Shown piece after piece: positions 2,041 to 21,902 of a stretch of 32,000 nucleotides of DNA. The position numbers and the translations under genes are program-made. The stretch spans positions 781,374 through 813,373 of the forward strand of contig CP023991.1 of assembly GCA_003516025.1 (NCBI GenBank), written 5' to 3'. The stretch's first letter is position 1. Each line of letters starts with the position of its first letter. The notes beneath the pieces are model-generated. The model was given only the letters and a program-made list of their open reading frames with translations, did no database searches and was not told the DNA's origin. Source of the DNA: Candidatus Saccharimonadota bacterium. GTDB lineage: Bacteria; Patescibacteriota; Saccharimonadia; Saccharimonadales; UBA4665.

Positions 2041-2092
2041 TACTTTCCAAAACCTGGTATCGACCATCTGTCATGGTTTGCAATTTATATCA

Positions 2093-2752
2093 TTATTTGA
2101 CGAAATACTCCAGGAGTTTACCGTACTCAGCATCCGACAGAGCCGCGTCAGCTACCGACGCGATTGCCGATTCGTCATTAAAAGCGACTGCGAAACCTGC
2201 GGCGGTCGCCAGCAAACGGTCACTGGCACCATCGCCTACAATCGCCACGTCCTGTGAACGGATATTCATTTCACTGCACCACTCGGCTAGTTTGGCAACC
2301 TTGAATTCCGCGTCGTTCATACGTGTCGTGATATATTTCAGCACCCCATGTTCATTAAAATTTAATGAATTATTAGAAGCATAACGTGTAATACCCAACT
2401 CTTCGGCCATGTGACGTACCAGCAAATCCATTGAGCCCGACAGCAAGGCGACTTCAAAGCCGCGGTTTTGTAACTCCGTAACGGTTTCACGGGCACCTTC
2501 AAAGTAAGTGTAGTTATAAATGAGACTTTCAATCGCCTCACGGGTCGGCTCGGAGCGCTCGTTATATAGGGCGCATAGTATTTCCTGCCCCTGCTGGTCG
2601 GTTATGATTCCCTCGCGGCCCCAGCGCATTAACACTTCGTCCTCTTCATCAGTCACACCCATGGATTTGTTGAGCTCCTGCCATGAATTATCACGGATAA
2701 GCGTCTTGTTTACATCAAATATGATTAACTTCGGCGTGAATGTATCTGCCAT
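2093..2752 (-). CDS. HAD-superfamily hydrolase (SerB/PSPase-like subfamily IB)
   Basis: 219 aa with a GGAGGG SD. Motif I is IIFDVNKTLI and the C-terminal motif is GDGASD. The second acidic residue of motif I is Asn (DVN rather than DxD). Confidence 0.75.
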   Translation of the reverse strand: MADTFTPKLIIFDVNKTLIRDNSWQELNKSMGVTDEEDEVLMRWGREGIITDQQGQEILCALYNERSEPTREAIESLIYNYTYFEGARETVTELQNRGFEVALLSGSMDLLVRHMAEELGITRYASNNSLNFNEHGVLKYITTRMNDAEFKVAKLAEWCSEMNIRSQDVAIVGDGASDRLLATAAGFAVAFNDESAIASVADAALSDAEYGKLLEYFVK

Positions 2753-2860
2753 AAGGTTCCCTCCGGTATTGCTTTATGGTAATCAGTATAGGCGGCCCTC
2801 GGGTGAGGCGGAAGTATATATTTCACAGCGTATACTATTAGCTATAACCAGGAGGTAGCC

Positions 2861-3253
2861 ATGGAAGGTTTTGTATCATCATTCAGTGGATTTTCCGTTA
2901 ACGACATTGCGGCGGCTCATACGTTTTATATTAATACGCTCGGTCTGACGCTGCAGGATGAGAATATGGGCCTGCATATAGTATTGCCTGGCGGTCAAAC
3001 CGTATTCATATATGAAAAGCCGGATCACCAGCCTGCCAGCTTTACCATACTCAATTTTGTGGTTACTAATATTGATGCGGTTGTCGACGAGTTAAAAACT
3101 CGTGGCGTCCGTTTTGAACGCTACGATTTGGGCAACGGCGCCGCGCAAGACGAAAATGACATACTACGGGGACTTAGCGCCGGTATGGGCCCGGATATCG
3201 CCTGGTTCAAAGATCCTGCCGGTAATGTCCTGTCTGTACTCCAAAGCGAGTAA
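2861..3253 (+). CDS. VOC / glyoxalase-bleomycin resistance family protein
   Basis: 130 aa with an AGGAGG SD. The pattern FSVNDIAAAHTFYINTLGL...FKDPAGNVLSV is typical of the VOC fold. Confidence 0.75.
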   Translation: MEGFVSSFSGFSVNDIAAAHTFYINTLGLTLQDENMGLHIVLPGGQTVFIYEKPDHQPASFTILNFVVTNIDAVVDELKTRGVRFERYDLGNGAAQDENDILRGLSAGMGPDIAWFKDPAGNVLSVLQSE

Positions 3254-3267
3254 ATACGCTATAATAA

Positions 3268-5171
<1,904 letters not shown>

Positions 5172-19376: not shown

Positions 19377-19454
19377 TCTTTCAATTATAGCAGCCGTGAC
19401 TGGCGCAAAGCTGAAAAGCCGTTGTCTTTTATGCACAAACAGGCAGGCGTACTA

Positions 19455-19482
19455 TTGCTTTTTTTAAGTTTTTTGGTATAAT
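19455..19482 (+). promoter_or_regulatory. Strong sigma70-type promoter with extended -10 (TTGCTT-N16-TGgTATAAT) reading into the island
   Basis: TTGCTT at 19455-19460, TG at 19474-19475 and TATAAT at 19477-19482. It is divergent from ctpA. It predicts a ~190-nt leader before GTG 19683. Confidence 0.6.
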
Positions 19483-19519
19483 ATGCGTCATTGCTCGGAG
19501 TTTTAACTTCTTGCAATGT

Positions 19520-19553
19520 CATTTGACAAGCAGATACTTTAGAATTGAGACAA
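19520..19553. repeat. Left inverted arm of the island (CATTTGACAAGCAGATACTTTAGAATTGAGACAA)
   Basis: 19524-19553 can pair with 20423-20448 as 13 + 4 + 7 = 24 bp, with one internal loop and one 2-nt bulge. The core TGACAAGCAGATA is present three times in the island. Confidence 0.7.
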
Positions 19554-19682
19554 TCTCATACGGGCTGAGCTCTAAGACCATTACTTACATAAGTGGTTTT
19601 ATAGTTCAGTCTGTGTGTTCAGATAACACGCGCTCGCAGCTTGCGGGAGGCATACCGCCTACTGAATAGAGGGGAAACTACC

Positions 19683-20285
19683 GTGTCCAACGGAACCAAC
19701 GCCCGGCAGTCGGTCATGTCGTTCTTCAACAGCACGGTCTACCTGACGCTCAAGGCGCCGGTGGAGGGCCCGCAGTTCGACTTCGTGATGAGCGAGGCGT
19801 CCCGCATGGTGAACACCCTCTTCGCGCCGGTCATCGGCCAGCTCCCCACATCGGCGGACAAGACGACCGAGTCGTCGGAGACCCGTTCCGAGCCGGTGAA
19901 GCTCACCAAGACCTACCGCACCGCCAAGGGCAACCTGACCATCGAGGTCAAGGTCACCCTGCGGCAGCCGATCGATCGGAACCAGGTCTACTCGGCGCTC
20001 GAGCACTCCCTGTCGGAGACGCACTCGCTCGTGCAGTTCGTCGAGATGGAGATGCCCACCAAGGAGCAGGTCATCGACAACATGGTCGGCGACCTGGTCG
20101 ACTCCATCTTCCCCGGCGGCGCGAGCTTCCTCAAGGACGTGATCGGCGAGGACGCCCTCAGCGACCTCCTGGCCGGCGGCAGTTCCCAGTCCGGTTCGGA
20201 CTTCTTCGGCGAGAGCTTCACCAGCCTCCTCGGCAGGACCGCTACCCGTTCCTCCGGCATGCCCGGCTTCCCGCCCAGCCGCTGA
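19683..20285 (+). CDS. Orphan 200-aa protein with foreign, GC3-saturated (actinobacterial-type) codon usage
   Basis: GTG 19683 with GAGGGG (19669-19674) 8 nt upstream; an alternative ATG lies at 19716. By my count only about 8 of ~200 codons end in A/T. The ORF tool's TTG 19641 start is less likely. I recognise no family motif. The C-terminal third is acidic and Gly/Ser-rich. Confidence 0.65.
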   Translation: MSNGTNARQSVMSFFNSTVYLTLKAPVEGPQFDFVMSEASRMVNTLFAPVIGQLPTSADKTTESSETRSEPVKLTKTYRTAKGNLTIEVKVTLRQPIDRNQVYSALEHSLSETHSLVQFVEMEMPTKEQVIDNMVGDLVDSIFPGGASFLKDVIGEDALSDLLAGGSSQSGSDFFGESFTSLLGRTATRSSGMPGFPPSR

Positions 20286-20324
20286 CCCCCCTTCCTCTGA
20301 CCTGACAGGAGAAAACGGTGCCGC

Positions 20325-20408
20325 TTATTCGTGGACCCCCGCAGTATTCGTGGACATGACAAGCAGATAAGCGAATAGCCTTAAGGTTGTCATGGGTACT
20401 TTTACCAT
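20325..20408 (-). CDS. Candidate small ORF (27 aa, MVKVPMTTLRLFAYLLVMSTNTAGVHE) with strong SD
   Basis: On the minus strand GGGAG (reverse complement of 20416-20420) lies 7 nt upstream of the ATG (20408). The ORF has a hydrophobic core. Its start codon lies in a local hairpin (20391-20409). It is too short to validate statistically. Confidence 0.3.
   Translation of the reverse strand: MVKVPMTTLRLFAYLLVMSTNTAGVHE
20326..20355 (+). repeat. Two direct copies of TATTCGTGGAC spaced 19 bp apart
   Basis: Copies at 20326-20336 and 20345-20355. The second copy runs into the 19-bp hairpin arm. Confidence 0.6.
20352..20370. repeat. Internal arm GGACATGACAAGCAGATAA, perfect 19-bp inverted repeat partner of 20435-20453
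   Basis: The exact reverse complement lies at 20435-20453, leaving a 64-nt loop that contains the small-ORF start region. Confidence 0.85.
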
Positions 20409-20422
20409 GTGTTTTCTCCCTT

Positions 20423-20453
20423 TTGTCTCTTCTTTTATCTGCTTGTCATGTCC
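20423..20453. repeat. Right inverted arm of the island (TTGTCTCTTCTTTTATCTGCTTGTCATGTCC)
   Basis: It pairs either with the local arm at 20352-20370 (19 bp) or with the distal left arm at 19524-19553 (24 bp). Confidence 0.8.
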
Positions 20454-20503
20454 GCTTCTACGATTACATCATCGTACTGATGAGTCCCTCAGGACGAAAA
20501 GCG
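20453..20503 (+). ncRNA. Type III hammerhead self-cleaving ribozyme motif
   Basis: Helix III pairs CGCUU (20453-57) with AAGCG (20499-503). C17 is at 20458. Helix I pairs UACGAU (20459-64) with AUCGUA (20471-76) around the loop UACAUC. The core CUGAUGA is at 20477-83. Helix II pairs GUCC with GGAC around the loop CUCA (20484-95). GAA is at 20496-98. All invariant core positions, the G10.1-C11.1 pair and the A15.1-U16.1 pair are present. Confidence 0.8.
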
Positions 20504-20510
20504 TTTGCAT

Positions 20511-20543
20511 TACAATAACCGCCATATACTGGCGGTTATTGTA
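20511..20543. terminator. 13-bp perfect hairpin, probable terminator/insulator between the island (+) and the pcsB-like gene (-)
   Basis: TACAATAACCGCC (20511-23) pairs with GGCGGTTATTGTA (20531-43) around a 7-nt loop. The flanks are only moderately U-rich on either strand. Confidence 0.5.
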
Positions 20544-20556
20544 ATCTGTTATTAGC

Positions 20557-21714
20557 TTAGAAGTGGATGAATACCAGGCCGGTGGTATAGCGCCAACCTT
20601 CGGAGTAGCGGCCATCATAGCTGGCATTATACTGGCTGACGTACACAGCCTGCTGGCCATTGATAGTACCAACCTGCTCTACATACATGGCATGACCCCA
20701 CGTACCAGCGTTGCTGATGGCGATTGAACCGGGCGTCGGGCTTGAGTCAACCGGGATACCGGCGCGCATGGCGTTTTCATCCCATTGGTTAGCATTTCCA
20801 ACACCGCCCCAATACGGCATATCATGGCTGTTCTGGCCGGCTAGAAAGTCCTGGTGAACCTTGAAAGCGGTGTACGAAACACACTCTCGGTTATACATGC
20901 CCCAGCTGTCAATTACGGAATCCTGACCGATATTACACCACTTGGCCGGGTAACCACCGCCGCAGTTGACGCCTGTACCGGCAGGCCCGATGTTATAACG
21001 GGTGTTGGCGATAATCTGCTGCCTACGTAGTTCTGCGATCTTAGAGCTGTTAGAAGCAATTTGTGAATTATATGAATCCTTTTGCGCCTGAGTATAGGCC
21101 AGCATGTCGGCCTGTTGCTGCCGGTCGGCTGCCAGCTGGGCCTGCTGGGTCTTCTGGCTTTCAATCAAACCGTCAACCTGGGTCTTCTTCTGCTTGAGCT
21201 GGTTCTGTAGTTTGGCGATCTTAGTCAGTGAAGCCTGGATGTTCTTTTGTACGGCATTGCGGTACTCTTCTTTATCTACGAATTCACTAAGGTTCTTGCT
21301 GGTAGCGAGCATTTCGACGGTTGAGATATCGCCGTCAACATACATAGCTTTAATATCAGCTCCGAGCAGGGCGCGCTCGCTGTCAATTCGCGTTTGCATA
21401 GTAGTGATTTCGACCTGCAAAGCGGCCTGCTCTGCCTGGTTGGCGCTAATCTGGGCCTGTACGGCATCAATCTGCCCCTGCAACTTACTGATGGCATCCT
21501 GATAACTGTTAGCCTGTGACTGCAGCGCGTCGACACTTGTCTGCGCCTGGGCGTTTTGTTCGCGGAGCGCGTTCATCTGGTCATCATACTGATCAGCCAA
21601 GGCTACCCGGGTGATAGTGCCGCCAACGACTAAAACACTGACCACTAACACCGCGGCCAGGTGGCTGGCGCGGCCAAAAATAAACGATTTTTTACTGTTT
21701 TTTGGTTGTTTCAT
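20557..21714 (-). CDS. PcsB-like secreted peptidoglycan hydrolase: signal anchor + long coiled coil + C-terminal CHAP domain
   Basis: I chose the start MKQPKNSKK (ATG 21714). A TM/signal segment is followed by Gln/Ala-rich heptad-like repeats. The CHAP Cys lies in NRECVSYTAFKV and the His in WGHAMYVEQV. The gene is directly downstream of ftsEX. Confidence 0.8.
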   Translation of the reverse strand: MKQPKNSKKSFIFGRASHLAAVLVVSVLVVGGTITRVALADQYDDQMNALREQNAQAQTSVDALQSQANSYQDAISKLQGQIDAVQAQISANQAEQAALQVEITTMQTRIDSERALLGADIKAMYVDGDISTVEMLATSKNLSEFVDKEEYRNAVQKNIQASLTKIAKLQNQLKQKKTQVDGLIESQKTQQAQLAADRQQQADMLAYTQAQKDSYNSQIASNSSKIAELRRQQIIANTRYNIGPAGTGVNCGGGYPAKWCNIGQDSVIDSWGMYNRECVSYTAFKVHQDFLAGQNSHDMPYWGGVGNANQWDENAMRAGIPVDSSPTPGSIAISNAGTWGHAMYVEQVGTINGQQAVYVSQYNASYDGRYSEGWRYTTGLVFIHF

Positions 21715-21902
21715 TGTTTTTGTATTAAAACGTGATGTTTTTATGTTTTGAGAATACACCCTAAATATACCACACTTCATCAGCAATGTAAATAACCCTC
21801 TTATGCTTAGCGACAAGCGTTTCCTGCCTCGATTTACAGCCGGAGACACTCACCGTTCCACCGTGAGGAAATGGACGTGTAATAAATGTTGACGTTTCTG
21901 TC

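Follow-up and report, generated by a model that had tools for sequence, protein, structure and literature searches.

What self-cleaving hammerhead ribozymes do in the genomes of bacteria and phages is a long-standing question, to which a well-formed example on a Saccharibacteria chromosome adds a case in an easily interpreted position. The example was found in a 32,000-nt stretch of DNA (i.e. the window; GenBank assembly GCA_003516025.1, contig CP023991.1, positions 781,374 to 813,373), where a type III hammerhead motif at 20453-20503 follows one promoter-like element, a small gene and a terminal hairpin, and precedes a convergent host gene. Is this motif a working ribozyme, and what would it do for the gene in front of it? 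On balance we think it probable, if well short of assured, that the motif is a genuine type III hammerhead that serves as the 3' end module of a foreign-gene cassette of ~1.07 kb and trims the mRNA of that cassette.

A complete type III motif with every invariant position and with cleavage between 20458 and 20459 had been claimed from a sequence-only reading of the window, and both inspection of the sequence and a descriptor scan bore out the motif, its coordinates and its topology. All core positions were intact (i.e. C3 U4 G5 A6 N7 G8 A9, G12 A13 A14 and an H17 other than G), as were the closing pairs G10.1-C11.1 (G20484-C20495) and A15.1-U16.1 (U20457-A20499). Helices I, II and III comprise 6, 4 and 5 bp, with I and II closed by loops and III open, which is the type III topology. 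Self-cleavage is predicted between C20458 and U20459, in agreement with the claimed site. When the 51-mer was folded in isolation, its minimum free energy (MFE) structure was the hammerhead fold (-11.4 kcal/mol). Natural hammerheads mostly keep a reverse-Hoogsteen pair in which the 5' U of loop 1 is joined to the 3' A of loop 2, and tertiary-stabilised forms carry the motifs UNmYN in loop 1 and RNnA in loop 2 (Dufour et al. 2009, PMC2632901). Both residues of this key tertiary pair are present in the window motif; loop 1 (UACAUC) matches UNmYN and loop 2 (CUCA) ends in A as in RNnA but begins with C in place of the purine.

The motif was far removed from chance expectation. Our own descriptor, which required the core, the G10.1-C11.1 and A15.1-U16.1 pairs, H17 and at least 4 bp in each helix, detected just one site, 20453-20503, when both strands of the window were scanned. 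No type III match was obtained in 300 dinucleotide-preserving shuffles, relaxed helix lengths included. An Infernal search against Rfam 15 aligned the motif to RF00008 (Hammerhead_3) over model positions 1-54 of 54 with 43.9 bits. The E-value was 5.7e-8 for a segment of 1.4 kb and 1.3e-6 for the entire window searched with all 4227 families, and this was the sole match of any Rfam family at E<=0.05 across the 32 kb. The earlier statement that a chance origin is very unlikely is supported by both the shuffles and the E-value on the window. The motif shares with the RF00008 hammerheads an identical core, the two closing pairs, H17=C and an open helix III, and its helix II (GUCC/GGAC) is identical to that of the RF00008 consensus and of the satellite RNA of tobacco ringspot virus (sTRSV). 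It differs from the viroid and satellite members of the family in being a single copy in bacterial-chromosome DNA and not part of a rolling-circle replicon.

Closer counterparts were obtained from phages. IMG/VR was scanned for CTGATGAGTCC-N4-GGACGAAA, yielding at least 120 stretches (loci L003-L122), and at least 76 type III descriptor matches were present in at least 51 IMG/VR loci, often with several (2-4) per phage contig. Among the matches listed, to which the following counts and positions refer, 56 of 67 unique phage sequences were exactly 51 nt long and in the frame of the window motif, i.e. a helix I of 6 bp with a 6-nt loop, a helix II of 4 bp with a 4-nt loop and a helix III of 4-6 bp. 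These phage hammerheads were intergenic, lying a median of 34 nt past a same-strand stop codon and 38 nt before the next open reading frame (ORF), and were mostly followed by same-strand genes. In 48 of the 58 distinct phage cases a stable hairpin ran right up to the ribozyme, its end falling on the first nucleotide (zero gap). The window exhibited the same arrangement, the 3' arm of its long hairpin ending at C20453, the first base of helix III.

A covariance model (R1) built from 38 of the phage type III hammerheads matched the window motif with 45.8 bits (E about 1e-10 over 281 kb) from end to end, without gaps and with 15 of 15 pairs standard. Covariation in the phage alignment was strong, though partly circular because the sequences had been picked with a pairing descriptor. 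The window motif thus has the length, helix and loop lengths, helix II, core and abutting hairpin of the compact phage hammerheads, and also the U at the 5' end of loop 1 and the A at the 3' end of loop 2 that are invariant in that family. It differs in its cleavage triplet and loops (UUC and UACAUC/CUCA, as compared to GUC and UGNGUG/RAAA in the phages) and in a much weaker helix I. The window hammerhead has the architecture of the phage family, but is a sequence outlier and not a close member. As a separate observation, many of the phage hammerheads (examples of the family being L010 at 3318-3368, L014, L064 and L114) were preceded by a near-identical hairpin, GGUGUCUUCAAAGACACC. The same IMG/VR scan also yielded a hatchet ribozyme on contig L057 and a twister ribozyme on L025.

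The window belongs to the chromosome of a Candidatus Saccharibacteria (TM7, Patescibacteria); the S41 peptidase flanking the island is 52-60% identical to Saccharimonadales proteins, the locus lies on contigs of about 1.005 Mb and the neighbouring genes are housekeeping genes (i.e. prfB, ftsE, ftsX, a CHAP-domain protein gene, the S41 peptidase gene, pyrG, secA, tRNA synthetase genes, tgt and queA). In more than 20 related genomes the S41 gene directly follows the CHAP gene with a gap of 50-300 nt, and relatives carry a contiguous row, ftsE-ftsX-CHAP-S41, which the window island interrupts between CHAP and S41. In the nearest relatives as judged by S41 (72-74% identity) the site is empty, as in loci L124, L152, L153 and L156. 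The island is an insertion: ~1.07 kb (roughly 19441-20505), transcribed in the opposite direction to the genes on either side, with junctions at 19437-19441 on the left and at ~20505 on the right. No integrase, transposase or reverse transcriptase was found in the window, where the 19 larger ORFs scanned were housekeeping genes or had no match.

Between the hammerhead and the CHAP stop codon lies a hairpin that had been described as 13 bp; it proved to be a perfect 16-bp stem whose plus-strand T tail is weak. Empty-site relatives have unrelated hairpins at the same position past the CHAP stop codon, and the hairpin is probably a host-backbone terminator of the CHAP gene. A synthetic origin of the hammerhead as a RiboJ-like insulator was ruled out, the locus being identical in JGI, ENA, NCBI and Logan assemblies within a Saccharibacteria contig. 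An origin of the sequence from E. coli or a plasmid was likewise rejected, since megablast gave no match in 5,426 E. coli genomes or in PLSDB. RiboJ is a synthetic, sTRSV-derived hammerhead insulator, positioned 5' of a gene so as to make the 5' untranslated region (UTR) uniform. In both RiboJ and the window a cis-cleaving hammerhead would set an RNA end irrespective of the neighbouring sequence, whereas the window hammerhead is natural and lies 3' of its gene. Coordinates of the features of the island are collected in Table 1.

Table 1. Features of the window island, of the adjoining host sequence and of the boxes in the homologous island L123 (L123 positions are those of that contig).
Feature	Position	Strand	Sequence, basis or remark
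Promoter-like element	19455-19482	+	TTGCTT, 16-nt spacer, TGgTATAAT (extended -10); from sequence; predicted start about 19489
Predicted 5'-terminal hairpin	19489-19518	+	CAUUGC / GCAAUG closing inner stem; from MFE structure of 970-nt predicted transcript
Left inverted box with extension	19524-19553 (box 19524-19536)	+	TGACAAGCAGATA plus extension GAGACA; 13-nt perfect inverted repeat with 20436-20448
Cargo ORF, 200 aa	19683-20285	+	GTG start; AGGGG Shine-Dalgarno-like; orphan, foreign composition
Long local hairpin	20352-20386 / 20419-20453	+	35-nt imperfect arms, 19 bp perfect at base
Right inverted box	20436-20448	+	In 3' arm of long local hairpin
Box pair, window cassette	19524-19536 with 20436-20448		TGACAAGCAGATA
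Box pair, L123 cassette 1	1187-1198 with 2047-2058		TGACAGACAGAT
Box pair, L123 cassette 2	2161-2174 with 3091-3104		GACAAGCAGACAGA
Type III hammerhead ribozyme motif	20453-20503	+	Sequence reading, RF00008 match, descriptor scan, model R1 match
Helix III, 5' strand	20453-20457	+	CGCUU; sequence
H17	20458	+	C; sequence
Helix I, 5' strand	20459-20464	+	UACGAU; sequence
Loop 1	20465-20470	+	UACAUC; sequence
Helix I, 3' strand	20471-20476	+	AUCGUA; sequence
Core C3-A9	20477-20483	+	CUGAUGA; sequence
Helix II, 5' strand	20484-20487	+	GUCC; sequence
Loop 2	20488-20491	+	CUCA; sequence
Helix II, 3' strand	20492-20495	+	GGAC; sequence
Core G12-A14	20496-20498	+	GAA; sequence
Helix III, 3' strand	20499-20503	+	AAGCG; sequence
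Perfect 16-bp hairpin	20509-20524 / 20530-20545		Between hammerhead and CHAP stop codon
CHAP-domain gene, convergent	20557-21849	-	54 nt beyond ribozyme

The gene carried by the island (i.e. the cargo ORF) has a G+C content of 0.66 and a G+C content at third codon positions (GC3) of 0.96, as compared to GC3 values of 0.56-0.62 in the flanking host genes, and on this compositional ground it appears both clearly coding and clearly of foreign, high-GC origin. Searches of its protein against Pfam, PHROG and NCBIfam gave no match; an AlphaFold2 model was of low confidence (predicted local distance difference test score of 60), and Foldseek searches of this model against PDB and BFVD returned nothing at E<=0.001. 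The sole credible relative among 1.8 billion representative proteins was P0004, a protein of 177 aa with 29-31% identity and a common HSLSETH motif; a weak match to P0005, a repeat protein of 1352 aa, was treated as spurious. A stretch of 47 nt within the cargo ORF (20034-20080) was 85% identical to a hypothetical gene of the Gordonia phages Pupper, SCentae and CherryTomatoes (E=2e-4). This match may be compositional, since a tblastn search of phages with the cargo protein found nothing.

P0004 is encoded on contig L123 directly upstream of a Saccharibacteria S41 peptidase gene whose product is 63% identical to the S41 protein of the window, so that the same chromosomal site is occupied in both. 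L123 carries two tandem cassettes (1113-2065 and 2068-3110) that are built like window positions 19441-20505. The three cassettes share an AT-rich promoter, a 5' box, a leader, one or more high-GC ORFs, a pyrimidine-rich 3' module and an inverted copy of the box. The boxes, of 12-14 nt, vary between cassettes, yet left and right copies correspond exactly within each, and hence covary across the three cassettes. GC3 values of the cargo ORFs ranged from 0.76 to 0.96 (in L123, the ORFs at 1353-1886, 2293-2628 and 2642-3001), and the L123 S41 gene had a GC3 of 0.76. High GC3 is seen in both homologous cargos, although their identity is only about 30%; one L123 cargo ORF matched phrog_18585 (E=1.7e-7) and, weakly, gp59 of Mycobacterium phage JustASigh. 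This pattern suggests repeated capture from high-GC donors, e.g. Actinobacteria or their phages. Saccharibacteria associate with actinobacterial hosts, and the Mycobacterium phage match fits such a source.

Further copies were sought by pattern. The exact ribozyme core with the CUCA loop and a 21-nt conserved word of the ORF were both absent from IMG/VR. The 3'-module pattern gave only three chance matches over metagenome contigs and none in IMG/VR, and of 120 IMG/VR matches to a degenerate box pattern none had a matching inverted box.

The promoter-like element was missed by a simple promoter scan because its -35 hexamer matches at only 3 of 6 positions; AT-rich elements (TTGATTTTTT ... TATAAT / TATACT) also precede both L123 cassettes, and a promoter-like element is thus common to all three. 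A 5' hairpin comparable to that predicted for the window transcript can be drawn by eye at the corresponding position of L123 cassette 1, and we infer a counterpart there. At the other end, the 19-bp hairpin arm of the sequence-only reading is present, but as the perfect base of a longer structure with imperfect arms of 35 nt. Folding of 20352-20500 gave -55 kcal/mol (z=-6.8), and this hairpin and hammerhead helix III share one base, the last of the former and the first of the latter.

The two boxes are also predicted to pair with each other over the length of the transcript, with probabilities of 0.87 for the processed window transcript and of 0.97 and 0.99 for the L123 cassettes. In the window the long-range helix, or panhandle, reaches 24 bp in the MFE structure (19524-19553 with 20423-20448). 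Since the panhandle and the local hairpin are predicted to be nearly isoenergetic (-393.7 as compared to -390.3 kcal/mol), a conformational switch between the two is possible. For the full, unprocessed 1062-nt transcript, forcing the hammerhead fold costs only 2.5 kcal/mol, and in the optimum then obtained the panhandle is retained and the local hairpin lost. A role of the inverted boxes at the level of DNA, in inversion or transposition, is also possible.

From these parts a sequence of events can be proposed. The cassette promoter would drive a plus-strand RNA through the 200-aa high-GC ORF and into the ribozyme, which, once transcribed, would cut after C20458. Cleavage would free an mRNA of ~970 nt whose 2',3'-cyclic phosphate lies 5-10 nt past a strong terminal structure, i.e. 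either the local hairpin with its 35-nt arms or the 24-bp panhandle formed with the 5' box, and cleavage might be coupled to formation of the latter. The same cut would detach the mRNA from RNA that would otherwise continue through the 16-bp hairpin and form antisense to the convergent CHAP gene. The message would thereby gain a defined, structure-protected and terminator-independent 3' end, which may stabilise it. The length of roughly 970 nt given in the sequence-only reading was arithmetically right (19489 to 20458). The 3'-trimming role put forward there stands as the most economical reading, aided by the promoter-like elements in three cassettes and by the hairpin-hammerhead family of phages; the cleavage on which it depends is predicted from the motif. 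The accompanying remark that no described role was known for a hammerhead at a protein-coding cassette is not right, such roles having already been proposed (PMC3088659; PMC6155905). In prophages and bacteria, hammerheads that lie beside single genes or small orphan ORFs have been proposed to cut long transcripts into gene-length mRNAs, and several of them cleave in vitro and in vivo (PMC3088659; PMC6155905). The window hammerhead resembles these examples (Perreault et al. 2011, PMC3088659; de la Peña et al. 2017, PMC6155905) in its intergenic position beside a small non-conserved ORF, in its location in horizontally acquired DNA and in the proposed role of processing transcripts to gene length. 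It differs in that the published cases usually comprise several ribozymes on the flanks of the gene and lie near integrase or prophage genes, whereas the window has one ribozyme, no integrase and a Saccharibacteria host.

A number of observations weigh against this interpretation, and some of them bear on whether the motif is a ribozyme at all. The covariance-model search suggested in the sequence-only reading, where a score below threshold was to refute the motif, matched the expected family, but the 43.9 bits fell 4.6 bits under the RF00008 gathering score of 48.5 and a scan at the default threshold was empty. The bit loss in the alignment arose from peripheral loop lengths (loop 2 is 4 nt shorter than in the consensus and loop 1 is longer) and left the core unaffected. 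When type III hammerheads of IMG/VR phage contigs were scored as a control, 10 of 11 were below 48.5 (34.3-48.3 bits) and one reached it; the hammerhead of a 366-nt viroid-like record, with 44.2 bits, was likewise under this value. As most phage hammerheads of identical architecture also score below it, the gathering threshold can be argued to be conservative for the compact form and the shortfall not to be decisive. The four assemblies with the locus were 100% identical over 6-12 kb and hence offered no sequence variation for covariation. No hammerhead was found in the homologous island L123, and since its cassettes are built without one, the ribozyme appears to be an optional add-on to this cassette type and not a constant part; nor were other hammerheads found in 250 kb of Saccharibacteria loci. 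A chance resemblance in a motif without RNA function would account for the single occurrence, the lack of covariation support and the score under the gathering threshold. We consider it next to negligible in view of the E-value against 4227 families, the empty shuffles, the gap-free alignment to an independent, phage-derived model and a site that is architecturally expected, directly abutting a hairpin.

The other unfavourable points concern activity and context. The R1 score of the window motif lies below the range of 30 phage family matches (49-75 bits), the cleavage triplet is UUC where GUC is usual, and the 5' residue of loop 2 is C and not a purine. Helix I is AU-rich and has a pair probability of 0.31 in context, as compared to a phage median of 0.98; this value is lowered to about 0.3 by competition from an alternative 5-bp hairpin, UCAUC (20469-20473) / GAUGA (20479-20483), which hides core residues G5-A9 and could be either an off-state or a mere weakness. 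The local hairpin, when extended to G20350-C20455, covers the first three nucleotides of helix III, whose pair probability in context is near zero, which also holds for 21 of the 33 phage examples. The cargo ORF stops 167 nt upstream of the ribozyme, as compared to the phage median of 34 nt, and, unlike the phage norm, no same-strand gene lies downstream. Such features are what would be seen if the motif were an intact but idle relic of a phage-derived hairpin-plus-hammerhead intercistronic module, cleaving poorly or not at all, with no downstream same-strand gene in need of separation and with a homologous L123 cassette that works without a hammerhead. We regard this as the less likely account, albeit one to be taken seriously: all invariant positions and 15 of 15 pairs are intact, which is not expected for long in 51 neutral nucleotides, the key tertiary U and A residues are present, and the abutting terminal hairpin is the functional arrangement of the phage cases.

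If the ribozyme does cleave, its main purpose might instead be insulation, with read-through cut before it becomes antisense to CHAP, or release of a 3' small RNA of ~90 nt consisting of the ribozyme and the 16-bp hairpin. The convergent gene starts 54 nt past the ribozyme, read-through is plausible given the weak plus-strand T tail of the 16-bp hairpin, and the island lies within a row of genes that is contiguous in relatives. Cleavage does not halt RNA polymerase, however, so that the antisense RNA would still be made and merely be detached; moreover, nothing points to a function of the 3' fragment, and the phage members are mostly followed by same-strand genes. We give this purpose rather little credence. 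A life cycle with an RNA intermediate (i.e. circularisation, retro-mobility or export), like that of retrozymes, viroid-like RNAs and Obelisks, is highly improbable. These RNAs (circles of about 0.3-1.2 kb) and the window cassette have in common a hammerhead of type III, a unit length near 1 kb and ends that are predicted to pair; the ~970-nt unit is near viroid-like and Obelisk RNA size, the pairing of 5' and 3' boxes would bring the ends together, and the same site is occupied in two distantly related Saccharibacteria. Such cycles need cuts at both ends, by two ribozymes or through rolling-circle multimers, whereas the window has one site in chromosomal DNA. No second hammerhead or other self-cleaving ribozyme was detected, either at E<=10 between 19300 and 20700 or at E<=0.05 across the window, and this single cleavage site makes a circular-RNA or retro-mobility role unlikely, as it leaves no 5'-OH end for ligation on the 5' side. 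The window encodes neither a reverse transcriptase nor an integrase, and the L123 cassettes have no ribozyme.

A type III hammerhead beside a small orphan gene in horizontally acquired DNA is the typical context of bacterial hammerheads and of a kind already known. What is new is the host lineage, i.e. Saccharibacteria of the candidate phyla radiation, the clean one-gene context and the surrounding cassette. No report linking hammerheads to Saccharibacteria was found in the searchable literature, the matches for Patescibacteria being apparently unrelated by title. The cassette, with its foreign high-GC cargo, covarying terminal boxes and reuse of one site in two distant relatives, is perhaps more interesting than the ribozyme and could bear on how Saccharibacteria epibionts acquire and express foreign genes. 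A bolder and distinctly speculative proposal, to which we assign only a small chance, is that the hammerhead is one module of an undescribed Saccharibacteria gene-cassette platform (i.e. promoter and leader, panhandle boxes and an optional ribozyme 3' end) that packages genes with high-GC codons. If so, Actinobacteria, as known hosts of the epibionts, and their phages would be candidate donors, and the GC3 values of 0.76-0.96 together with site reuse would imply a dedicated system for capture and expression of host or phage genes. A more radical option under the same proposal is that it is the actinobacterial host in which the RNAs or proteins are meant to act.

Two minor features were noted near the 3' end of the cargo gene. 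A minus-strand ORF of 27 codons, MVKVPMTTLRLFAYLLVMSTNTAGVHE (20325-20408), runs antisense to the 3' part of the cassette and is preceded by GGGAG 8 nt before its ATG; it is probably no gene, its L123 equivalent having only 5 codons. The GC-rich 3' UTR also contains a direct repeat, TATTCGTGGAC, in two copies with 19-nt spacing (20326-20355), just before the local box copy.

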